A stretch of 64,000 bases of DNA from an uncultured Candidatus Saccharibacteria bacterium (lineage in GTDB: Bacteria; Patescibacteriota; Minisyncoccia; Phycocordibacterales; SBAW01), in NCBI GenBank assembly GCA_964615415.1, contig CAZTNI010000002.1, positions 104,687 through 168,686 of the forward strand, in the 5' to 3' direction. A program made the translations under genes and the position numbers. The notes below the pieces were generated by a model. It did no database searches. It saw nothing but the letters and a program-made list of their open reading frames with translations, and was not told the DNA's origin. Below, one piece after another: positions 41,203 to 57,370 of this stretch. Within the stretch, counting starts at the first letter, position 1; the number at the start of each line of letters is the position of its first letter.

Positions 41203-41278
41203 GGGCCCGTAGCTTAGTTGGTAGAGCACCTCATTTGCAATGAGGGGGTCAGGAGTTCGAATCTCCTCGGGTCCACCA
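41203..41278 (+). tRNA. tRNA-Ala (TGC)
   Basis: Cloverleaf with G3:U70 identity pair, anticodon loop TTTGCAA, encoded CCA; terminator at 41289-41312. Confidence 0.9.
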
Positions 41279-44079: not shown

Positions 44080-44589
44080 ATGGGCGCTTTTAGTATCTTC
44101 TTTCAAGATCGAATGGCGGCTGGAGTGCGCGTGTGCGGCACCTGTAGCGCGTGCTGTAAAACCCACGGCGTGACACTTGCGCCCGATACATACAAACCAA
44201 AAGGAGTCTGGTGCCCACACTGGGACAAGCAGGAGCGTTGCACTATATATAAGACGCGCCCGAGGGATTGTCAGGATTTTCGGTGCGAGTGGCTGAAGGG
44301 ATACGGATCCGACTCGCTGCGTCCCGATAGAACAAAAGTAGTGCTCGACTTTGTAAACCTTCCTGATGGCCCCCAGGGAGGAATGCTCCAGATGTTTGAA
44401 GTGTCGGAGGGGGCACTCCTAAAGTCGGACATGCAAGCACTTACGCAGGAAGTTTGTACGCGTGGCGTGACCGTGGTCCACGTGCCGCTCGGTAGGCAGA
44501 AAAAGATCTTCATTCCTCGTCGGGTGAAAGATTTTACAGAAGTTGTAGAAAGTGCAACGGAAGAAGGGTATATAATCGTGCTCGTTTAA
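44080..44589 (+). CDS. YkgJ-family Fe-S/zinc-chelating domain protein (CxxCxxCC)
   Basis: CGTCSACC motif and further Cys pairs; terminator at 44594-44623. Confidence 0.55.
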   Translation: MGAFSIFFQDRMAAGVRVCGTCSACCKTHGVTLAPDTYKPKGVWCPHWDKQERCTIYKTRPRDCQDFRCEWLKGYGSDSLRPDRTKVVLDFVNLPDGPQGGMLQMFEVSEGALLKSDMQALTQEVCTRGVTVVHVPLGRQKKIFIPRRVKDFTEVVESATEEGYIIVLV

Positions 44590-44673: not shown

Positions 44674-44747
44674 GTCGGGCTGTCGTATAGTGGTAGTATG
44701 TAGGCCGTCGGAAATTTAGTCGGGCTGTCGTATAGTGGTATTATGTA
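44674..44747 (+). repeat. tandem direct repeat of the tRNA-Pro 5' half (29 nt, 1 mismatch, 45-bp spacing)
   Basis: GTCGGGCTGTCGTATAGTGGTA(G/T)TATGTA occurs at 44674-44702 and again as the 5' part of the tRNA at 44719-44747. Confidence 0.7.
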
Positions 44748-44791
44748 CGCTTCGGGTGCGTAAGATCCGAGTTCGATTCTCGGCAGCCCGA
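44721..44791 (+). tRNA. tRNA-Pro (CGG)
   Basis: Acceptor CGGGCTG/CAGCCCG, anticodon stem TACGC/GCGTA with loop TTCGGGT, T-arm CCGAG-TTCGATT-CTCGG; weak D-stem; no encoded CCA. Confidence 0.6.
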
Positions 44792-44812
44792 CTAAGTTTC
44801 TGACAATTCATA

Positions 44813-45494: not shown

Positions 45495-46280
45495 GTGCTT
45501 GACCAGCCGACACTAACACTTGATCATCCTGCCGTGCAGGCAGCGAAGGATCAGTGGGAGAGGAGACTCGCTAAACGTCCCGCTCCTCGAAAACATTCTT
45601 TTACGTTCGAGACCTTTTTCGAGCGTTTTAGTGACACCACTCTACCTCTTTCGCATTTACAGAAAGAGACAGGTCTGACACGAGCCCGGTTGTATCAAAT
45701 CTATGACAGATATTTCCGTACTCTATTTGGAGGGGTGTCCGCACGGAAACGCTTCCAAAAGATACTGTCTCGCAAGCGCGCTGCAGAGCTTGAAACAGCA
45801 GAGCAAACATTGCTCAAAAAACATCCTCGCTGGCGGCATGTTGTAAAGCAAGCACAACTCGCTTCCTGTGTCGTGGAAGCGGTGCCTATGGGGAATCATG
45901 GAAAAGAAACAGGGAGGGTGCTTGCCACTTCCTTGCGCATTAATGGACACCTTTGCTCTGCTCACATTGCACGCACTGCCCGCAGGTTGGCAGACACCAA
46001 GCGGAGTTATGTGCGTGTGCAGCTGAGTACTTTGGTGGTTCAAAGAAAATATGCAGTCGTTATTCATACGAGAGTGAAGGATCAAAAGCCACACACGTTC
46101 GTAATCCCGACTGCAGACATCCTCGCTGCCTATCCTGCGCTCCGCGAAGGTAAAGATGTGATGTTGAACATACCAGTAGAACGGTCGTCGGCATCTCATA
46201 AAAACATGTCGAAGCTTGCGTATTGGAACTACGAAAATGCGTGGCACTTGCTACGCCCCGAAGAAACATCCGCCCCGTAA
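45495..46280 (+). CDS. hypothetical protein with HTH-like segment
   Basis: LSHLQKETGLTRARLYQIYDRYF is HTH-like; 261 aa; terminator at 46268-46300. Confidence 0.4.
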   Translation: MLDQPTLTLDHPAVQAAKDQWERRLAKRPAPRKHSFTFETFFERFSDTTLPLSHLQKETGLTRARLYQIYDRYFRTLFGGVSARKRFQKILSRKRAAELETAEQTLLKKHPRWRHVVKQAQLASCVVEAVPMGNHGKETGRVLATSLRINGHLCSAHIARTARRLADTKRSYVRVQLSTLVVQRKYAVVIHTRVKDQKPHTFVIPTADILAAYPALREGKDVMLNIPVERSSASHKNMSKLAYWNYENAWHLLRPEETSAP

Positions 46281-46305
46281 ATAGGGGCGGATTCTTTTTT
46301 GCAAG

Positions 46306-46339
46306 CATATTGACCATCGAGGTTTTTAATGTTAAAAAT
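46306..46339 (+). promoter_or_regulatory. sigma70-like promoter CATATTGACC-N16-(TG)TTAAAAAT
   Basis: -35 TTGACC and extended -10 TGTTAAAAAT; shares the upstream ACATATTGAC block with promoters at 47540 and 51294. Confidence 0.45.
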
Positions 46340-46408
46340 CTGCCTGGAAGTCCGGCGGTAGTTGCCGCCACACAACCTCTGTTCAATCAACCACGAAAGG
46401 GTTCTCTC

Positions 46409-47482
46409 ATGTGGATTCTCGCGCTTATTGCGCTCGGTTTCTTTGCCTACATGGCGTATGACTTTCTGAGAGTAAACAGTCTTGATACTGCAGTGGCAGA
46501 TGCATTTTTTGCAGCCTCTTCTGAGACACAAGCAGTGCTTGGTATAACTCTCTGCCTGGTTATTGGGTTTATTATCCTGCAAGGAACGACATACCGAGCT
46601 GCCAAAAAAGATCGTGAAATAGCGCAGAAGGAGGCAGGTAGTCTTGCGGACGACTTGCTCGAACTTCGTGCCAAGCGAACGGAGCCTTATGACGATCCTA
46701 TCGCAGAGCTTGCCAGAATGATGGGTCGTCCTATACCAACTTCTCGTGTCTTCGATCAAGGCGAAGAGTCGGAAGATGTGCTCAAGACACTCGGTACGAG
46801 TATCGAAGAGTTGGAGACACAGTTGGGTACGGTGCGTCGCGAGTTCGGCGACGATGATCGGGTGCAGGAACTCTCCGAGCGTCTTGGACGCCTGCGGACT
46901 TTGCATAGCGAAGCGATGCGGCGATTCGAGTCGATCGAGAGCCTCCAAGAAGAGACGGATCGTCTTCAGCAGCGTCTTACGTCAGCTTTTGAAAAGGTCG
47001 ACATCGACGACCTTGAAGCGAAAGTCGACGAGATTGCCGACTTTGTTCGCGAAAAGCGCGATGTTGTAGAACGAGCAGCTACGCTCGCGCAGTCGCTTCC
47101 GGCGCATACTACTCGTCTGAAGAATTTGGACGAGCAGTCTCGCAAGATGATCGATGGAGAGTCGGGCATCATGGCGCAGGTTCGCGCTGCGGAGCGGACC
47201 ACTGCCGTGGTGAAGGGCCGCATCGAACAGCTGGCGGGTCGGCAAGGGGATCAGCAGCGAGGTGTCGCCGCTATTCCACCGATTGGCCAGCGGATCAGCA
47301 CCCTCGCTCAAGAGGTTGCGACTATCGAACGCGACATGGACAAACTGGATACTGATACCGGGATCCAGCGAGTCAATAGCCTCGGTACTCGCCTAGAAGC
47401 GCTGCGTGTGCAGCTGACCGGTCACAATTCGCCGCCGGTCCAGAGGCAGCAGCTCGCGGTTGTCCCCGCCGCTGCAGAGTGA
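46409..47482 (+). CDS. membrane-anchored long coiled-coil protein
   Basis: Start at MWILALIALGFFAY (2 TM helices) then ~300 aa of heptad-rich coiled coil; GC-rich. Confidence 0.5.
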   Translation: MWILALIALGFFAYMAYDFLRVNSLDTAVADAFFAASSETQAVLGITLCLVIGFIILQGTTYRAAKKDREIAQKEAGSLADDLLELRAKRTEPYDDPIAELARMMGRPIPTSRVFDQGEESEDVLKTLGTSIEELETQLGTVRREFGDDDRVQELSERLGRLRTLHSEAMRRFESIESLQEETDRLQQRLTSAFEKVDIDDLEAKVDEIADFVREKRDVVERAATLAQSLPAHTTRLKNLDEQSRKMIDGESGIMAQVRAAERTTAVVKGRIEQLAGRQGDQQRGVAAIPPIGQRISTLAQEVATIERDMDKLDTDTGIQRVNSLGTRLEALRVQLTGHNSPPVQRQQLAVVPAAAE

Positions 47483-47503
47483 GTTCTTTTTGTGCAGTAA
47501 TCA

Positions 47504-47536
47504 AGCGCGGCCAGTAGGCCGCGCTTTTTCTTTTTG
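47504..47536 (+). terminator. intrinsic terminator after the coiled-coil gene
   Basis: AAGCGCGGCC-AGTA-GGCCGCGCTT + TTTCTTTTT. Confidence 0.75.
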
Positions 47537-47539
47537 ATA

Positions 47540-47574
47540 CATATTTGACGATACGCACTTTTAGTGTTAAAAAT
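47540..47574 (+). promoter_or_regulatory. sigma70-like promoter CATATTTGACG-N16-(TG)TTAAAAAT
   Basis: Near-identical architecture to the 46306 promoter; 45 bp upstream of the E2-like gene. Confidence 0.45.
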
Positions 47575-47618: not shown

Positions 47619-49016
47619 ATGAAAGAAGAAATTCTTTATTTTCTGCCGAAGACGCTCGAAAGCGCTTTTGCGTGTCTTGATGCCGAAGGGCTTACAGCTG
47701 TGGAGCGAATAGTCGAGATCGAAGGATTCAAATTCCCCGGTCTCGTCATCTCTGGGCCAGAGGAAAAGCTTGAGCATTTTGCTCGGACGGCACGCGTACC
47801 CGAAGGTGGGCCGCGTGCGAGATTGCTTACTAATTTGGAAAAGATCTACGGCTCGCGCCTTGTGTTCGATGAAAAAATCGAACTCTGTGGCGAAACTGTT
47901 GTGGACGACAAAATGTGTCACGTGCTCGGGCTCGAGGGTGTTGTTGCAAACCTGCCGGAATATGGGTGGGGCTTAGATAAACATACCGAGCTTCTGGACG
48001 AGATCAATAGTACGCTCGCCGATATTTCTGCTTGGGCGGGGAAACCTGTTCTTCTTGCGGCGCCTTCGGAAGTCGTGGTGGGTCTCCCGCTTATTCCAGA
48101 GACGCAGATCTGCGTCATTCTCGATAGTTCTCCGGCGGGACACTACTCTGAAATGAGGAGTAAAAAACTGTGCGGCGTTTCCTTCAGCGAAATCGATGAA
48201 GGTATACGCCACTCAGGACCGACCGCAGGGAGAGGGTATGTAGTGCGCGACGAAGATGGTACTGCAGTTGCACAAATTATCCGGAACTGTTTCTACCTCT
48301 TCTTGCCATATGATGTGCTCCATAAGCGCATGGTACTGACTCAGGGTGGAAACGGCCTCGGCCTCTTTCGTAAGACGCTCATGCGAGCATGGAATGCGCA
48401 GTTTGAAGCGCGTGATCCTCAGATAGAAGTGTTCGAAAGTGCTGAGGCATACGTTGCCTTTGGACGAGAGACGGTTCAGGAAGCGCCGAGGATCCTTCGT
48501 GCACTTGTGGACGCACACGACAAAAAAATCGCTGAGGCAGAAGAAAAACTGCGGAATGCGATATCTGAAAAACGTCGTATGCTCCGCCTGATCGAGCACT
48601 TAGAGCGCGAGGCGAGTGAACTGACGCCTGAAAAGTTGAAACAGAGTTGGAACAAGCTTACTCAGTTGCCACAGGTGCGCTCTATAGCTTCGGTAGATAA
48701 CGCACTCCAGGTCGAGACTAACCTGCTTGTGAATACGCAGTACGGTCGTCGGCCGCTCGGGCGCTACATCCTACGTCTTGCAGAGCAGCAGATCTTTGTG
48801 TGGTGTATCGAGTCGTGCCATCCGGCCGGCTTGTCGCATCCGCACATTGGCGTTAAACATGGTAACCCGTGTTTCGGCAACGTTTCTATCGCGATTCAAA
48901 AAGCAGCAAGCGAGTCTCGAGCGTATGCTATCGAGTTAGCTATCCGCTGGCTCGAAAGTGGATACGACCACGACCTCGCAGATATAAAGATCACTGAGTG
49001 GCCGGAGGCAGCGTAA
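47619..49016 (+). CDS. multidomain protein with C-terminal E2 (UBC-like) ubiquitin-conjugating-like domain
   Basis: C-terminal IFVWCIESCHPAGLSHPHIGVKHGNPCFGNVSIAIQ parallels the UBC HPN-x(5-8)-G-x-(I/P)C(L/F) catalytic motif; AAAGGAG RBS; stop overlaps the E1 start (TAAATG). Confidence 0.5.
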   Translation: MKEEILYFLPKTLESAFACLDAEGLTAVERIVEIEGFKFPGLVISGPEEKLEHFARTARVPEGGPRARLLTNLEKIYGSRLVFDEKIELCGETVVDDKMCHVLGLEGVVANLPEYGWGLDKHTELLDEINSTLADISAWAGKPVLLAAPSEVVVGLPLIPETQICVILDSSPAGHYSEMRSKKLCGVSFSEIDEGIRHSGPTAGRGYVVRDEDGTAVAQIIRNCFYLFLPYDVLHKRMVLTQGGNGLGLFRKTLMRAWNAQFEARDPQIEVFESAEAYVAFGRETVQEAPRILRALVDAHDKKIAEAEEKLRNAISEKRRMLRLIEHLEREASELTPEKLKQSWNKLTQLPQVRSIASVDNALQVETNLLVNTQYGRRPLGRYILRLAEQQIFVWCIESCHPAGLSHPHIGVKHGNPCFGNVSIAIQKAASESRAYAIELAIRWLESGYDHDLADIKITEWPEAA

Positions 49017-49658
49017 ATGGTAGAACGTAACTACTCGCACCAAGACGATTTCTTTAACCCTGCGAACGCTCGGTCGGTAACGCTAATCGGCTGCGGATCG
49101 GTCGGGAGTATGGTAGCGTACACTCTGGACAAGATGGGTGTGCCCACGCTTGAGATATGGGACGGCGACAAAGTGGATTCCCACAACTGCCCCATGTCGT
49201 TCTATGACGAACCTGACATCGGCCGCTTCAAGGTCGATGTGCTGGCAGAGCGGCTTCGTAACGCGCAGGTGGTCCCTCATCGGGCCATGTATGCCGGCGA
49301 AGCGCTTACGAGTAGTGTCGTTATCGCTTGTGTCGACACCATGGTTGCGCGCAAACTCATATGGGAGCGCGTAAAAATGGTGCCGAGCGTCGCTTTGTTT
49401 TGCGACACGCGTACGGCAGAGCTCTATGTCGAAGTCCTTACTGTCTCGCCCTGCGAGCATGAAGACATCGGCAACTACGAGCAGCTGCTCTACGGCGACG
49501 AAAAGGCGGTGCGTCAGTCGTGTGGCCGGCATGGGCTCATGACCGTTTCCATGCGGGCAGCGCAAGTGGTTGCTTCCAACCTTGCTGCGTTTTGGCAAGA
49601 TGGGAGAAAGACGTGGCGCGTTGGTGAGCGGACAGACATCCACCACCGCGCGTTCTGA
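49017..49658 (+). CDS. minimal E1-like ThiF/MoeB-family adenylyltransferase
   Basis: VTLIGCGSVGSMVAYTLDKMGVPTLEIWDGDKVDSHN (GxGxxG Rossmann plus acidic loop) and VIACVDTMVARK match the E1 adenylation fold; 213 aa; translationally coupled to the E2-like gene. Confidence 0.65.
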   Translation: MVERNYSHQDDFFNPANARSVTLIGCGSVGSMVAYTLDKMGVPTLEIWDGDKVDSHNCPMSFYDEPDIGRFKVDVLAERLRNAQVVPHRAMYAGEALTSSVVIACVDTMVARKLIWERVKMVPSVALFCDTRTAELYVEVLTVSPCEHEDIGNYEQLLYGDEKAVRQSCGRHGLMTVSMRAAQVVASNLAAFWQDGRKTWRVGERTDIHHRAF

Positions 49659-49688
49659 AGTACAACTCACAACCAGAGAGGAACAAGC

Positions 49689-49937
49689 ATGTTCGGAAAA
49701 GACAAAAAGGGAACGATCAACATCAAGCTGATCGTCGTCACTGCGGCGGGTACACCGGTTGGCGACCGCGAGGTGCCGGTCGAGGAAAGCGCGACCATCG
49801 CGCAGATCCTCGAAACCCAGGGGATCAGCACTGAGGGGATGGAAATTTCCGTCAACGGCAAGCCGACCAGCAACCTCAGTCAGAAGGTGCGAAGCGGCAT
49901 GCAGATCTCGGTCACCGAGCGCCCCAAGGGCTCGTAG
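49689..49937 (+). CDS. ThiS/MoaD-like beta-grasp (ubiquitin-like) small protein, C-terminus -RPKGS
   Basis: 82 aa; ...ISVNGKPTSNLSQKVRSGMQISVTERPKGS resembles the MoaD/ThiS C-terminal strand; immediately downstream of the E1; terminator at 49955-49988. Confidence 0.45.
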   Translation: MFGKDKKGTINIKLIVVTAAGTPVGDREVPVEESATIAQILETQGISTEGMEISVNGKPTSNLSQKVRSGMQISVTERPKGS

Positions 49938-49954
49938 TTCTTTTGTGCGACAGC

Positions 49955-49988
49955 AAGTGCGACCTACGGGTCGCACTTTTTCTTTTGT
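49955..49988 (+). terminator. intrinsic terminator after the Ubl-like gene
   Basis: AAGTGCGACC-TACG-GGTCGCACTT + TTTCTTTTG. Confidence 0.75.
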
Positions 49989-52761: not shown

Positions 52762-53058
52762 ATGATCTACGGGGCAGTACTTGCACTCCATATTGTTGCT
52801 GCGTGTGTAACTTTTGCAGTTATTGCGGGTGTAGGCATTGCGCTTTTGAAGCAAATGCATCGTTTCTATAAACCACTGGGTCTTTCGCTCGCTCTCGTTG
52901 CGCTTGTACAAATTGCAAGCGGCGTCATGATGATCGTACTTAATCCGGAACTCTCTGTACTAAAAGTTGGTCTGCACTTACTTGTGTACCTTGGCGTGTG
53001 TGTGATGGTTGAGGGTGCGCTCTACCTTAAGGCGCGCTCAGTTGCATGGACTTCTTAA
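52762..53058 (+). CDS. small membrane protein upstream of cyoA
   Basis: ~99 aa, 3 TM helices; start MIYGAVLALH follows the terminator; overlaps the cyoA start. Confidence 0.4.
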   Translation: MIYGAVLALHIVAACVTFAVIAGVGIALLKQMHRFYKPLGLSLALVALVQIASGVMMIVLNPELSVLKVGLHLLVYLGVCVMVEGALYLKARSVAWTS

Positions 53059-53861
53059 ATTTTTTTGACGTCTTAAACCCTGCGGGAACTATCGCCCTTG
53101 CGGAGCGCGGACTTATGATCCACGCAGCACTGTTCATGACTATAGTCACCATTGCGGTCTTTGGTCTGACTTTTTTCTTTGCGTGGTATTACCGCGCAGG
53201 GAACACGAAGGCGAAATATACTCCCGACTGGCAGCACTCGCGGATGGAGGAACTTGTCTGGTGGGCGATCCCACTCGAAATTATTCTTGTACTTGGAGCA
53301 TTAACGTGGACGAGTACACACAACCTCGACCCGCGTAAACCACTTTCAGCAGAACCGCCGCTTGTGGTGCAAGTGGTGGCGCTGGATTGGAAGTGGCTGT
53401 TTGTGTATCCGGAAGAACATATTGCGACGGTTAATTATGTGCGCATCCCGGTTAATAAACCGGTGCGATTTGAAATTACTGCCGACGCGCCGATGAACTC
53501 GTTTTGGATCCCGCGCTTGGGCGGACAAATTTACGCGATGACGGGCATGGTGAATCATTTGAACTTAGATGCAACCGAAGAGGGAACGTTTAAGGGATTG
53601 TCTGCGAACTATAGCGGTGAAGGGTTTGCAGATATGAAATTTACAGTCGAAGCGACCTCGCAGGAGGAGTTTGATGCATGGGTAGCACAGACAAAAATGC
53701 AGCACGCAGTACTAACAACCGACTCCTACGCTGCGCTTGCGGCACCGAGTGTGGTCGAAGAGCCTGTGTATTACGGAATAGTCGAATATAATTTATTCGA
53801 CCAGATCGTAGGAAAATTCATGGGGCACGCACATGAAGTGAATGAACACGCACATCAGTAA
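53046..53861 (+). CDS. cyoA: quinol oxidase subunit II (CyoA/QoxA-like, no CuA ligands)
   Basis: 2 TM helices plus cupredoxin-like domain NSFWIPRLGGQIYAMTGMVNHLNL without the CuA Cys/His set. Confidence 0.8.
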   Translation: MDFLNFFDVLNPAGTIALAERGLMIHAALFMTIVTIAVFGLTFFFAWYYRAGNTKAKYTPDWQHSRMEELVWWAIPLEIILVLGALTWTSTHNLDPRKPLSAEPPLVVQVVALDWKWLFVYPEEHIATVNYVRIPVNKPVRFEITADAPMNSFWIPRLGGQIYAMTGMVNHLNLDATEEGTFKGLSANYSGEGFADMKFTVEATSQEEFDAWVAQTKMQHAVLTTDSYAALAAPSVVEEPVYYGIVEYNLFDQIVGKFMGHAHEVNEHAHQ

Positions 53862-53864
53862 TAT

Positions 53865-55673
53865 ATGTTTGGAAACCTTACCTTAGACGCTTTCATACAT
53901 GGTCCGATAGAAACCGGCGCGCAGCTCATGGTTGTACTTGGCGGTGTGGCTATCGCCCTTTTGCTCACCGTCTTTAAACGGTGGGGATGGTTCTATAAAG
54001 AGTGGCTCACGACCGTCGACCATAAAAAGATCGGCATCATGTACATCATCCTCGCGGTGATCATGCTCTTCCGTGGTGCGATGGATGCGTTTATGATGCG
54101 TGCACAACAAGCGATAGCGGTGGGTGACAGCGTGGGCTACCTCGACCCAAACCACTTTTCGCAAATCTTTACGGCGCATGGGATCATTATGATCTTTTTT
54201 GTCGCTATGCCCTTGATGTTCGGGCTCATCAACTACATGGTCCCGCTCCAAATTGGTGCGAAGGATGTCGCGTTCCCGTTCCTGAACTCTGTCTCGTTTT
54301 GGCTTACTGCTGCAGGGGCGATGCTACTTAATGCGTCGTTAGTGATAGGTGAATTCGCGGCAACGGGGTGGCTCGCATATCCGCCGCTCTCCGGTATTGA
54401 GTACAGTCCTGGTGTTGGAGTCGACTACTACATTTGGGCGCTCCAGATAGCAGGTGTCGGTACACTCCTTTCGGCAATCAACTTTATTGCGACGATTCTG
54501 AAGATGCGGAAGGCAGACATGAAGTTGATGCAGATGCCTATCTTCCCGTGGACCGTGTTCGGCTCGATGCTGCTCGTCTTGTTTGCATTCCCGATCCTTA
54601 CCGCAACGCTCGCACTCTTGTCTTTGGACCGTATCTTCGGCATGCACTTCTTTACCACCGACCTTGGCGGGAATGCCATGATGTACATCAACCTGATTTG
54701 GGCATGGGGTCACCCGGAGGTGTACATTCTTATCCTCCCCGCGTTCGGTATCTTTTCAGAAATTGTGCCAACGTTCGCGCAGAAAAAACTCTTCGGCTAC
54801 ACCTCTATGGTTGTTGCAACGATGATGATCGTCTTTTTGTCGTTCATTGTGTGGGTGCACCACTTCTTTACGATGGGTGCTGGCGCAAATGTGAACGCAT
54901 TCTTCGGCATCATGACCATGGCTATTGCTGTACCAACCGGCGTAAAAGTATTTAACTGGCTCTTTACGATGTTCCGTGGTCGCATCATCTACAAAACCCC
55001 GATGCTGTGGTTTATGGGATTCCTCGTCACCTTTGTAATCGGCGGCATGACGGGTGTCTTGATGTCGATCCCTGCGGCGGACTTCCAGCTCCACAACAGT
55101 TTGTTCCTTGTGGCGCACTTCCACAACATGATCATCGGCGGCGTATTGTTTGGCATGTTTGCGGGGCTCTCGTATTGGTTCCCAAAAATATTTGGATTCA
55201 TGTTGAACGAGCGCTTGGGCAAGTGGGCATTTTGGTCATGGATCATCGGTTTTTTGGTCGCGTTTTTGCCAATTTATGCTGCAGGGTTGATGGGTATGAC
55301 GCGCCGCTTAAGCCAAGTGGAGCCGCAGTTCCAGCCACTCCTTATTGTTGCTGCAATTGGTGCGTGTATCATTGCGCTCGGTATTTTCTTCCAAGTGCTG
55401 CAAATTGTGGTCAGTATTGTGCAGCGCAAACAGCATCCTGCAGGAAATAATCCATGGAACGGAACGAATTTGGAGTGGACACTGCCGTCGCCGCCGCACT
55501 ACGAGCCGTACGACCCGAAGCACAACACGCTGCTTGGTGTGATGATAGCGGGGCTTAGCTTCTTTCTGGGGTTTGGGATCATCTGGCACATATGGTGGCT
55601 CGCAGCCGTCGCAGCTGTGGCGATAGTTGGCGGACTTATCCTGCGTACATTTAGATATGAAGGAGCACACTAA
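53865..55673 (+). CDS. cyoB: heme-copper quinol oxidase subunit I
   Basis: [23 protein letters not shown] and His-ligand pattern; 602 aa. Confidence 0.95.
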
Positions 55674-56217
55674 CACAGCAACATTCGGATTTTGGATCTA
55701 CCTCATGAGCGATGTGGTGCTTTTTGCATCGCTCTTTGCAACGTTTGCGGTGCTGCAAGGCGCAACGTTCGGTGGACCGACTCCAAAAGAATTATTTGAC
55801 CTACAGTTTGTGTTGTTTGAAACGCTGATCCTTCTTACCTCAAGTTTTACTGTGGGATTAAGTCTTTTGTCTGCACATGCAGGGAAGCGACAAGCAACGC
55901 TTATCTTCCTCGGCATGACCCTGCTTTTAGGCTTAGGATTTTTGGCGATGGAACTGACCGAGTTTCGTCATCTTATTGCGGAAGGGCATGGTCCCGGAAC
56001 GAATGCATATCTCTCCTCATTCTTTACGCTCGTCGGGACGCACGGACTCCATGTCTTTTTTGGCGCACTATGGATGATAGTGACGATGGTCTTTATTGCG
56101 CTGCGCGGCCTTGACCGTGCGCTCACAAAACTTGCGTGCCTCTCGCTGTTTTGGCACTTCCTTGATGTGATCTGGATATTTATTTTTACGCTGGTGTATC
56201 TTATTCCGATGCTATAA
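55657..56217 (+). CDS. cyoC: quinol oxidase subunit III
   Basis: [24 protein letters not shown] is a conserved subunit III N-terminus; start within the overlap with cyoB is uncertain. Confidence 0.75.
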
Positions 56218-56222
56218 ATCGT

Positions 56223-56552
56223 ATGCTTACTTCATCGCGCACATATGTTATAGGGTTCGCACTCTCTACACTGCTGACGCTTGCTGCGTTTGGCTTGGTC
56301 TTTCAATACATAGCAGGAAGTTTGCCCATAGCGCGCGAGTGGCTCATTGTTGCGCTTCTGGTGTTCGCGGTCGCGCAGTTGATCGTACAGGTAACGTGCT
56401 TCCTCCACTTAGGATCAGAAACAAAACCGCGCTGGCAACTCATCACGTTCCTCTTTTCCCTCCTTGTTGTAGTAATTTTAGTAGGAGGCAGCATTTGGAT
56501 CATGACCCATCTCACGCACAACATGATGCAAGACACCTCGCACGTGTGGTAG
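56223..56552 (+). CDS. cyoD: quinol oxidase subunit IV
   Basis: 109 aa, 3 TM helices, position in operon. Confidence 0.7.
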   Translation: MLTSSRTYVIGFALSTLLTLAAFGLVFQYIAGSLPIAREWLIVALLVFAVAQLIVQVTCFLHLGSETKPRWQLITFLFSLLVVVILVGGSIWIMTHLTHNMMQDTSHVW

Positions 56553-56644
56553 GGTTGGAGCGAAGTGCTTTGCAAAAAAGAGGCTATGACTTGGGCTAGC
56601 GCCCCCGGAGCGCACTCTTTTTTGTAATGCACGAGCTACTACAC

Positions 56645-57370
56645 ATGTCCGCAATCATTAAAAAATATTACTACCTCGCAAAGCCGGGGATCGTGCGCAG
56701 TAACGCGCTCGCTGCTGCGGCAGGTTTTGTATTTGCTTCAAGCGGCGCGATCAATTGGGGAGTGTTTGCCGCAATGTTGTTGGGATTGATAGGAATCATC
56801 GCAAGTGGCTGCGTGTTTAATAATTACTACGACCGCGACATAGACGCGCGCATGGAACGAACGGCAAAACGCGCCCTTGTGCGCGGCACTATTTCCGACG
56901 CACATGCACTTATATATGGAACAGTATTAGGAGTCCTGGGTGGGGCAGTGCTGCTTTTATATACTAATTTCCTGACGTTTGCTGTCGCGCTTGTCGGCTT
57001 TGGTGTGTACGTGCTCCTCTATACGCCGGTTAAACACAAACACCCTGTAGCGCTGTTTATCGGCGCTGTTGCGGGCGCAGTGCCACCGGTCGTGGGTTAT
57101 GTTGCGGTAACCAATACGTTCGACTGGTGGGCAGTGGTTCTCTTTACCTTTTTATATGTGTGGCAGTTGGTGCACTTTATGGCGATAGCGGTCTATCGGT
57201 ATGACGAGTATACGGCTGCTGGCGTGCCTCTCTATATAAAGGAGCGTCCGTCAGATGCCACAAAACAGAAAGCAAAAAAAGTATTTCACGTCTCGCTCGT
57301 TGTACTGCTTTTGTTTTGTGCAGGTCTTGTCGTGTATAGTTTATTGACTTTATTTAAAATTATTATATAA
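56645..57370 (+). CDS. cyoE: protoheme IX farnesyltransferase (heme O synthase)
   Basis: UbiA-family polytopic protein after cyoD; YYDRDIDARMERT motif. Confidence 0.8.
   Translation: MSAIIKKYYYLAKPGIVRSNALAAAAGFVFASSGAINWGVFAAMLLGLIGIIASGCVFNNYYDRDIDARMERTAKRALVRGTISDAHALIYGTVLGVLGGAVLLLYTNFLTFAVALVGFGVYVLLYTPVKHKHPVALFIGAVAGAVPPVVGYVAVTNTFDWWAVVLFTFLYVWQLVHFMAIAVYRYDEYTAAGVPLYIKERPSDATKQKAKKVFHVSLVVLLLFCAGLVVYSLLTLFKIII

Follow-up and report, generated by a model that had tools for sequence, protein, structure and literature searches.

The stretch of DNA analysed here (the window) comprises 64,000 nucleotides from an uncultured Candidatus Saccharibacteria bacterium (GenBank assembly GCA_964615415.1, contig CAZTNI010000002.1, positions 104,687 to 168,686 of the forward strand), and our subject is a module of three genes and about 760 codons within it, the last gene of which encodes a small ubiquitin-like protein (Ubl) with an unusual C-terminus. 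This open reading frame (ORF), at window positions 49689-49937, had been singled out in an earlier reading of the sequence (the original prediction) as a beta-grasp protein that ends in -RPKGS instead of a diglycine and that lies beside genes for an E1 and an E2 enzyme. Its coordinates, strand, sequence and stop codon all proved correct, and the C-terminus does read ...ISVTERPKGS, followed by TAG. A ThiF-type E1 gene is indeed located directly upstream, and the first gene of the operon encodes a partner protein of 465 amino acids (aa), here called X, whose E2-like active-site domain gives the predicted neighbouring E2 moderate support. The features of the operon, all on the + strand, are as follows.

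47503-47526, + strand: terminator-like hairpin closing the preceding coiled-coil membrane protein gene (10-bp stem with 8 GC pairs, then a T-run)
47545-47574, + strand: candidate sigma-70-like promoter of the three-gene operon (TTGACG, 18-nt spacer, AAAAAT; 9 of 12 positions match, only a weak match to the consensus)
47619-49016, + strand: gene X, first gene of the operon, encoding the 465-aa partner protein
48627-49013, + strand: C-terminal UBC/E2-like domain of X (residues 337-465)
48837-48845, + strand: invariant H407-P408-H409 of X
48870-48872, + strand: putative catalytic C418 of X
49017-49658, + strand: second gene, encoding a minimal ThiF/MoeB-type E1 adenylation enzyme of 213 aa (C169 at 49521-49523)
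49689-49937, + strand: third and last gene, the Ubl ORF of 82 aa (TAG stop at 49935-49937 included)
49917-49934, + strand: conserved flexible C-terminal tail of the Ubl, E77-R78-P79-K80-G81-S82
49955-49978, + strand: intrinsic-terminator-like hairpin ending the operon (GC-rich with a T-run: 10-bp stem with 6 GC pairs, then TTTTCTTTTGT)

The hairpin at 47503-47526 marks the upstream limit of the operon. The ATG of the E1 gene stands immediately after the stop codon of X, and the Ubl gene starts 30 nt past the E1 stop, with an ATG start codon and a GAGAGGAA ribosome-binding site 6-13 nt upstream of it. No Rfam families or tRNAs overlap the operon region, which rules out an explanation at the level of RNA. 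On the opposite strand, a 297-aa ORF (49083-49976, - strand) runs antisense to the E1 and Ubl genes; it is a shadow of the coding strand and no gene. Long antisense or alternative-frame ORFs over the module recur in GC-richer loci, where they produce spurious "conserved" clusters in neighbourhood analysis, and these are likewise shadows of the coding frames.

Several independent assemblies of sequencing runs (L001-L003 and L086) encode the identical protein and close it with the same stop codon, so the ending is not the product of a sequencing error or a frameshift. The original prediction had allowed that the true stop might lie further downstream; the stop codon is real, and nothing here refuted the reported end.

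The window ORF is a real beta-grasp Ubl, as had been proposed. An AlphaFold2 (AF2) model built from the single sequence (pLDDT 84) has a bb-a-bb-b topology of strands and helix, after which residues 78-82 follow the last strand and are modelled as unstructured (pLDDT 46 for residues 81-82). A Foldseek search with this model retrieved SUMO2/3, ISG15, MoaD, FAT10, TtuB and ubiquitin, all at a probability of 1.0 and with E values of ~3e-4. A profile of the Ubl family, compared to solved structures, matched SAMP2 and PF1061 most strongly (~4e-4; 3.5e-4 for SAMP2), followed by TtuB, ThiS and MoaD, and the Pfam SAMP2 model was matched by 14 of 28 family members at E < 0.1 (best 2.9e-5). The window Ubl taken alone scored 16.6 bits against Pfam SAMP2, 14.8 against ThiS and 16.4 against Ub-Mut7C (cut-offs 27, 22.5 and 23, respectively). 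All of these are sub-threshold, and every sub-threshold Pfam match of this protein is to a beta-grasp modifier family; no Pfam model reached its threshold, and no NCBIfam, PADLOC or PHROGs model was retrieved for it. Like other beta-grasp modifiers, the Ubl is paired with an E1-type enzyme, a ThiF-family gene lying directly upstream in every locus with sequence there, and it lacks the terminal Gly-Gly, or at least terminal Gly, that such modifiers carry.

Distribution of the module and conservation of the Gly-Ser end

In word-indexed homolog searches, neither the Ubl nor X retrieved anything but itself. The E1 search yielded eight relatives (30-56% identity), and their contigs carry the same X-E1-small-ORF order. 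An exhaustive phmmer search with X over 1.84 billion cluster representatives yielded 253 proteins at E < 1e-3, including 168 at E < 1e-10. For the retrieval of whole loci, we used a degenerate DNA pattern of ~41 bits made from the X motif HP-x4-HPH-x7-C[FY]GN, which covers only X proteins with a 7-residue spacing between HPH and Cys and misses the 8-residue members, the X of the window among them. This pattern retrieved 31 loci from a species-representative genome collection, 28 of which contain the operon, and 42 loci from metagenome contigs, where the operon is present in 36; in viral contigs, it had zero matches. The matches without an operon (L020, L028 and L029 among the genomes; L053, L057, L065, L074, L075 and L081 among the metagenomes) arose by chance. 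The X-E1-Ubl synteny was found in ~60 further loci, and the small ORF is present in every locus having sequence downstream of E1. Because the loci were retrieved via X alone and not via the tail, the resulting sample of orthologs is unbiased with respect to the Ubl terminus.

From these loci, 53 complete small ORFs were retrieved, 44 of them distinct, with an identity of ~32%. Forty-two of the 44 end in GS, one ends in GG (L039) and one in SS (L042). The tail has the same length in all of them, i.e., exactly one residue stands beyond the Gly position in every ortholog, and the GG variant is no shorter or longer than the rest. The original prediction had named drift of the terminal residues among orthologs as the finding that would count against it; the G-S end is instead kept. 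The tail as a whole, with the consensus V-[TS]-E-R-P-[QR]-G-S-COOH, is the most conserved part of the Ubl. Its composition in the 44 distinct orthologs, counted back from the C-terminus, is as follows.

Position -8: V in 33 of 44
Position -7: T in 23 of 44, S in 11 of 44
Position -6: E in 38 of 44
Position -5: R in 42 of 44
Position -4: P in 34 of 44, A in 7 of 44, V in 3 of 44
Position -3: Q in 21 of 44, R in 11 of 44
Position -2: G in 43 of 44
Position -1: S in 43 of 44

When 28 members were aligned (mean column identity 32%), conservation reached 90% or more in just four columns of the Ubl: G21, R78, G81 and S82. The terminal Ser is encoded by TCC (25), TCG (14), TCA (2), TCT (1) and AGC (1), the penultimate Gly by four different codons, and the ORF is closed by TGA in 22 orthologs, TAA in 11 and TAG in 11. 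This synonymous variation indicates that selection acts on the protein sequence and on a stop right after Ser. Moreover, X and E1 of the same loci are uninterrupted under code 11 (the standard bacterial code), so the TGA stops are real stops and not recoded Gly codons. The conserved GS end is far beyond what chance would produce.

The two exceptions to GS can be regarded as natural "mutants" of the same tail length, and both retain the whole module. One comes from a metagenome-assembled genome (MAG) labelled Gammaproteobacteria (L039), in which the Ubl ends in ...RQRPQGG, and the other from a 1.19-Mb MAG chromosome (L042, OY970181.1), in which it ends in ...AERPHSS. We looked for covariation of the E1 motifs with the GG or SS termini and found none that was convincing.

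Named host genomes are overwhelmingly MAGs of Patescibacteria, i.e., the candidate phyla radiation (CPR), and include Uhrbacteria, Lloydbacteria, Kaiserbacteria, Paceibacterota and Saccharibacteria. The 1.19-Mb chromosome, which is complete, is among the named genomes bearing the module, as are a few MAGs labelled Gammaproteobacteria. All-against-all clustering of the flanking ORFs from ~35 non-redundant loci yielded nothing beyond X, E1 and the Ubl, together with shadows in their alternative frames; there was no fourth conserved gene, and the next real cluster was common to at most three loci. No linked peptidase was found in the ~60 loci. The module is thus self-contained and sits in unrelated contexts. 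Scattering of this kind, free of context, is typical of accessory or defence-type cassettes, and the patchy distribution suggests a function of that type for the module as well.

Literature searches retrieved no description of the module. X and the Ubl are without a model in NCBIfam, where the E1 falls far under every cut-off. The original prediction could not match the protein to a known system, and searches of Pfam, NCBIfam, PADLOC and PHROGs with the Ubl and X, along with the literature, bear this out. The module looks like an undescribed bacterial E1-E2-Ubl family, set apart by its Gly-Ser end, its lack of a linked peptidase and its CPR distribution.

The E1 enzyme and protein X

The E1 was assigned to the ThiF family by Pfam (2.4e-14) and possesses the nucleotide-binding GxGxxG, the Mg-binding Asp and the conserved Lys of an E1 domain. 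Invariant in the family are G25xG27xxG30, D49, D51, K72, D107 and R112, and R132 is also kept. Its profile retrieved UBA5, ThiF and MccB from the PDB at ~4e-13, with PaaA as strong a match as UBA5 and ThiF, and BubCD and MoeB at ~5e-7; these alignments to solved structures cover only the first ~120 positions. Beyond them lies Cys169, which is invariant within the motif QxCGxHG and which presumably stands in the same C-x3-G-[VIL] register as MoeB C187 and ThiF C184.

Two hallmarks of E1 enzymes are missing from the clade with the GS end. The N-terminal RQ that supplies the canonical Arg finger (residues 7-9) is replaced by S[HQ]Q throughout this clade, and SNxxRQ (residues 55-61) is replaced by SHNxPMS, in which H56 and N57 are invariant. 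At these sites, KRQ/DRQ and N..NQ are retained in P0010 and P0011, two distant relatives of the GG type. The replacement amounts to one evolutionary event and is no more than suggestive, but it does show that the part of the E1 that touches the phosphates and the Ubl terminus was remodelled in precisely the GS clade.

Protein X has no family in Pfam, NCBIfam, PADLOC or PHROGs. Its AF2 model, built with 65 family members (pLDDT 89), shows a variable N-terminus (~1-160), a conserved beta-rich middle (~160-260), a long helix of ~60 residues (275-334) and a C-terminal E2-like domain. Conservation spans from about residue 160 to the C-terminus, and the N-terminal 100-160 residues vary among homologs, which is as expected of a target-recognition module and may indicate one here. 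The C-terminal domain is modelled as a helix, five strands forming a beta-meander, a long loop and two helices, followed by a conserved tail, KI(E/T)EWP; this order fits the arrangement of UBC enzymes, in which a four-stranded meander precedes the Cys. The loop contains H407-P408-H409, which is invariant, followed by a Gly at +5 and by C418 at +9. The motif HPH-x7-C is invariant in the family, and as a sequence pattern its spacing is that of HPN-x7-C in UBC enzymes, such as HPNINSNGSIC of UbcH5.

When a profile of this domain was compared to the PDB, about 50 of 57 weak matches (E 0.18-2) were E2 enzymes, and these aligned in register, with the meanders, the HPN and HPH motifs and the Cys residues all coinciding. 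Similarly, hhalign paired the domain in the same register with three human E2s at 58% probability, with controls at 1.4% and 0.1%. A Foldseek search with the whole X model retrieved no significant PDB match and BFVD was uninformative, the full-length X profile found only coiled-coil noise in the PDB, and Pfam UQ_con and Prok-E2 gave no passing match, the sole trace being one of 29 members against E2-ntca (0.035). Judging from the motif, its register and the predicted order of strands and helices, X is probably an E2/E3-like protein with a UBC/E2 core at its C-terminus.

Outside the E2-like domain, the only near-invariant residues of X are G174, G204, G206 and Q219. A peptidase in the N-terminal or middle domains was considered and rejected, as there is no conserved Cys, His, Ser, Asp or Glu there. 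A JAMM reading of HxH-x7-C-x-G-N was rejected as well: the position of the Zn-ligand Asp is occupied by an invariant Asn, there is no conserved upstream Glu, and the order of elements is UBC-like rather than MPN-like.

Known systems and the possible role of the terminal serine

The nearest relative outside the clade is located on an uncharacterised AT-rich (27% GC) phage-like metagenomic contig (L008:4315-6684; the same in L009:1097-3466). Here, the order of genes is a Ubl-E2 fusion, a 47-aa ORF, a JAB/JAMM peptidase (HSHN-x7-S-x2-D; Pfam JAB 3.8e-5) and an E1 (P0011). The fusion, which the X profile found with E 2e-9, consists of an N-terminal beta-grasp-like segment ending in ...IIPTVKGG|AKSS, a coiled coil and an E2-like HHPYIAGDGDICYG, with the motif HHPYI...G..CYG. 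Apart from the JAB and the E1, the proteins of this gene cluster have no PHROG or Pfam family. P0011 is the closest E1 outside the clade, with 30% identity, the same size and the same conserved Cys, and the Ubl has the same sequence style as that of the window. Unlike in the window, the E2 carries the Ubl as an N-terminal fusion, Gly-Gly precedes the junction, a JAB gene is present and the E1 keeps the canonical RQ-type motifs. The architecture is like Type I Bub but Cys-based. A system with Gly-Gly and a junction encodes a JAB, and the CPR clade, with its free Ubl, encodes no peptidase, which indicates that a peptidase is encoded where one is needed.

Among described systems, Bub Types I and II (bacterial ubiquitination-like, formerly 6E/DUF6527; Ye et al. 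2024, bioRxiv 10.1101/2024.11.21.623953) resemble the window module in being compact and in combining a minimal homodimer-type E1 with a beta-grasp Ubl and no E3. The profile of the window E1 matched the solved BubCD at 4e-7. The Bub E2 is non-canonical and lacks the last UBC helices (bioRxiv 10.1101/2024.11.21.623953). In contrast to the window module, which has an invariant Cys at both candidate positions, Bub works through oxyesters on Tyr (E1) and Ser (E2), with no catalytic Cys. It also has the serine protease BubE (DUF6527) and often a JAB, neither of which occurs in the window operon or as a Pfam match; the Bub Ubl has a conserved Gly at its end, either as encoded or after cleavage, and the gene fusions of Bub differ. 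The anti-phage system BilABCD (Bil, bacterial ISG15-like) shares with the window module separate genes for Ubl, E2 and E1, Cys chemistry and an E2 proposed to recognise its target without an E3. However, BilD is a large E1 with inactive adenylation, active adenylation and catalytic-Cys domains (IAD-AAD-CYS), whereas the window E1 consists of one adenylation domain of 213 aa. Bil furthermore encodes BilC, a JAB peptidase, and its Ubl terminates in Gly; PADLOC models gave no Bil match in the window module.

Type II CBASS is similar in its E1 domain (PADLOC E1-E2 ~1e-12 and PDB Cap2 1e-8, in the nucleotide-binding region only) and in conjugating through a C-terminal carboxylate. It differs in that Cap2 is an E2-E1 fusion, a CD-NTase instead of a beta-grasp protein is conjugated, Cap3 is a JAB and the conjugated end is Gly or Ala; a CD-NTase, Cap3 and an effector are all absent from the window module. 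The UFM1-UBA5-UFC1 and Atg8 systems likewise have a minimal homodimeric E1, UBA5 being the best solved match (3e-13), as well as a single Gly and a very short C-terminal extra (UFM1 ...VG-SC, yeast Atg8 ...FG-R); their extras, however, are removed by the cysteine proteases UfSP and Atg4 and the Gly is activated, whereas here no protease is linked and the extra is one Ser. UFM1 ends in Val-Gly (PMC12355090). The sequence comparison indicates no orthology of the window module with UFM1 or Atg8 beyond shared superfamilies. Lastly, SAMP2 and TtuB-ThiS-MoaD are the closest relatives of the window Ubl in sequence and structure and are activated by ThiF/MoeB-type E1s, but they end in Gly-Gly, work with no E2 and in many cases double as sulfur carriers. 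The window module shares the E1 and E2 superfamilies and the beta-grasp modifier with Bil, Bub and CBASS but fails the defining features of each.

On balance, and tentatively, we favour the reading that the window ORF is the modifier of a self-contained, Cys-based E1-E2-Ubl conjugation module and that its terminal Ser is functional, most likely as the activated residue. The E1, a ThiF-type enzyme that probably forms a homodimer, would hold the beta-grasp body and thread the tail ...E-R-P-x-G-S into its adenylation site, where the C-terminal carboxylate would be adenylated with ATP. The acyl group would then pass to the invariant Cys169 of the E1 and on to Cys418 in the UBC-like domain of X. 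As an E2/E3 hybrid, X may pick the target through its variable N-terminus, and the Ubl would be ligated to an amine of that target. Ser82 would take the place of ubiquitin Gly76, with R-P-x-G-S aligned to R72-L-R-G-G76, and the active site of the E1 would have been remodelled to accept it. With slightly less assurance still, we suppose that Ser82 itself is adenylated, thioesterified and ligated, which would make this the first natural Ubl with an E1 evolved for an end other than Gly or Ala, leave a Gly-Ser remnant on targets and constitute a peptidase-free Cys-based system largely confined to the CPR. A Ser that is retained and activated is supported by the strict conservation of both residue identity and one-residue length, by the register of R-P-x-G-S with the end of ubiquitin, by the GG variant being of the same length, by the absence of a linked peptidase and by the remodelled active-site motifs of the E1. 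The original prediction had listed three possibilities: that processing of the C-terminus exposes Gly, that adenylation acts on a non-canonical substrate, or that the gene does not encode the conjugated moiety at all. This list still stands, and the weight shifts, short of a settled answer, towards a functional, retained Ser and away from the last of the three.

Several points weigh against an activated Ser. The loss of both Arg motifs could mean altered or reduced adenylation, and the equivalence of Cys169 with the catalytic Cys of ThiF, MoeB and UBA5 is a positional inference only, as the alignments to solved E1s stop near residue 120. In all Ubl-E1 pairs that we know to have been characterised, the terminal residue is Gly, or Ala for some cGAS proteins of CBASS, and we know of no characterised E1 that activates a terminal Ser. 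In type II CBASS, a terminus changed from G to S no longer forms the thioester with Cap2 and is not conjugated, and Ala is the one replacement that is tolerated in part (PMC10097602). A conserved Gly at -2 is also exactly what a P1 Gly cleavage site would look like, and G81 is conserved as strongly as S82. These last facts would suit a one-residue propeptide, which is the main rival reading and which we consider rather unlikely. The genes would still form an E1-E2-Ubl module, but Ser82 would be a cap. An unlinked peptidase or carboxypeptidase, or one supplied by an invader or under stress, would take it off, and Gly81 would then be adenylated canonically. The conserved Ser would either direct cleavage by that peptidase as its P1' determinant or serve as a safety catch keeping the Ubl inert. 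A terminal Ser does block Cap2 (PMC10097602). BubAB and, presumably, the L008 fusion are cleaved after Gly by JAB peptidases. Short caps exist on yeast Atg8-R (one residue), UFM1 VG-SC (two) and QbsE-CF. Nevertheless, the cleaved extensions of SUMO, NEDD8, Atg8 and UFM1 vary in length and sequence, as such extensions normally drift, whereas here there is one residue in 44 of 44 orthologs and it is Ser in 43 of them. Furthermore, none of the ~60 loci has a linked peptidase, the conserved non-E2 parts of X contain no possible catalytic centre, the SS variant (L042) minus one residue would still end in Ser, and removal of the Ser would shift the register against ubiquitin R72...G76, leaving the Arg at -3 and not at -4.

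Two further readings of the terminal Ser and its protein strike us as improbable, the one involving its side chain even more so. By chemical analogy with MccB-type intramolecular capture or beta-lactone synthetases, the adenylated carboxylate of Ser, which is a beta-hydroxy acid at the C-terminus, might react with its own hydroxyl to give a beta-lactone-type end, or an N-to-O acyl shift at Gly-Ser might give an ester, yielding a reactive warhead or a transfer without the classical E1 thioester. The E1 profile does match the peptide-modifying MccB and PaaA as strongly as UBA5 and ThiF, the Arg motifs that bind the phosphate and the terminus are replaced clade-wide, and strong selection acts on which residue stands at the terminus. 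However, no conserved feature demands a lactone or an ester, the invariant Cys of both E1 and X fit a plain thioester relay, and the GG variant (L039) keeps the whole module with no hydroxyl to offer. The other reading is that the Ubl does not modify proteins but carries sulfur, like ThiS and MoaD, or binds the E1 non-covalently, with X being structural or regulatory instead of an E2. The closest sequence relatives of the Ubl (SAMP2, ThiS and TtuB) do include sulfur carriers, and the E2 assignment of X is only moderately supported. But sulfur carriers need a terminal Gly-Gly thiocarboxylate, no locus has a sulfurtransferase, thiazole, molybdopterin or tRNA-thiolation gene, the HPH-x7-C of X in register with the E2 active site would be left unexplained, and the module occurs sporadically and free of any fixed context, which is not how a cofactor pathway behaves. 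As for an artefact, whether a mis-called stop, a frameshift, an ORF that is not a gene or TGA recoded as Gly (as happens in some CPR lineages), its probability is practically negligible. We found no evidence supporting it; the window stop is TAG and all three stops occur at the same position across the 44 orthologs, X and E1 are uninterrupted under code 11, independent assemblies carry the identical sequence, and the gene is equipped with a strong ribosome-binding site and a terminator, its product having a confidently modelled fold.

From ThiS to ubiquitin, no chemical feature of ubiquitin-type tagging is, to our knowledge, as constant as the terminal glycine, and the bacterial E1s tested so far reject a terminal Ser. 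If the Ser is activated here, the substrate range of E1 chemistry would be extended, which would be useful for E1 specificity and engineering, and the Gly-Ser remnant would serve as a distinct mass tag. If the Ser is instead a cap, it would represent a new control step, i.e., a one-residue safety catch removed by a peptidase. Together with CBASS, Bil and Bub, the module would bring the bacterial E1-E2-Ubl architectures to four; like the eukaryotic systems it would rely on Cys, and it has no linked deconjugating enzyme. We know of no protein-tagging pathway described in the reduced-genome CPR bacteria.

Neighbouring genes in the window

Directly upstream of the module (46223-47482) lies a gene for a 419-aa protein (357 aa as called in L086) with an N-terminal hydrophobic segment and a long coiled coil. 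It has weak matches to ABC_tran_CTD and to SMC/JetC/LmuB-like PADLOC models, possesses its own terminator and is not conserved beside the module elsewhere. About 3 kb upstream of the module (44080-44589) is a gene for a putative Zn/Fe-binding protein of the CxxCxxCC type (PF03692, YkgJ-type). A gene ~4 kb downstream of the E1 on the phage-like contig (L008:10478-10828) also belongs to PF03692, which is probably a coincidence. Two tRNA genes, tRNA-Ala(TGC) at 41203-41278 and tRNA-Pro(CGG) at 44721-44792, are likewise located upstream, and between the tRNAs and the module are small unrelated genes or orphans, including an HD-domain phosphohydrolase and a 261-aa orphan.

CPR bacteria, to which most relatives of the module belong, are usually without respiratory chains, so a window with an oxidase cluster may come from one of the CPR lineages that bear an oxidase or, judged by that feature by itself, from outside the CPR. 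Downstream of the module, the window (53046-57370) contains a complete cytochrome bo3-type quinol oxidase cluster, made up of COX2 with COX_ARM, COX1 (1.6e-150), COX3, COX4_pro and a UbiA-family heme O synthase.

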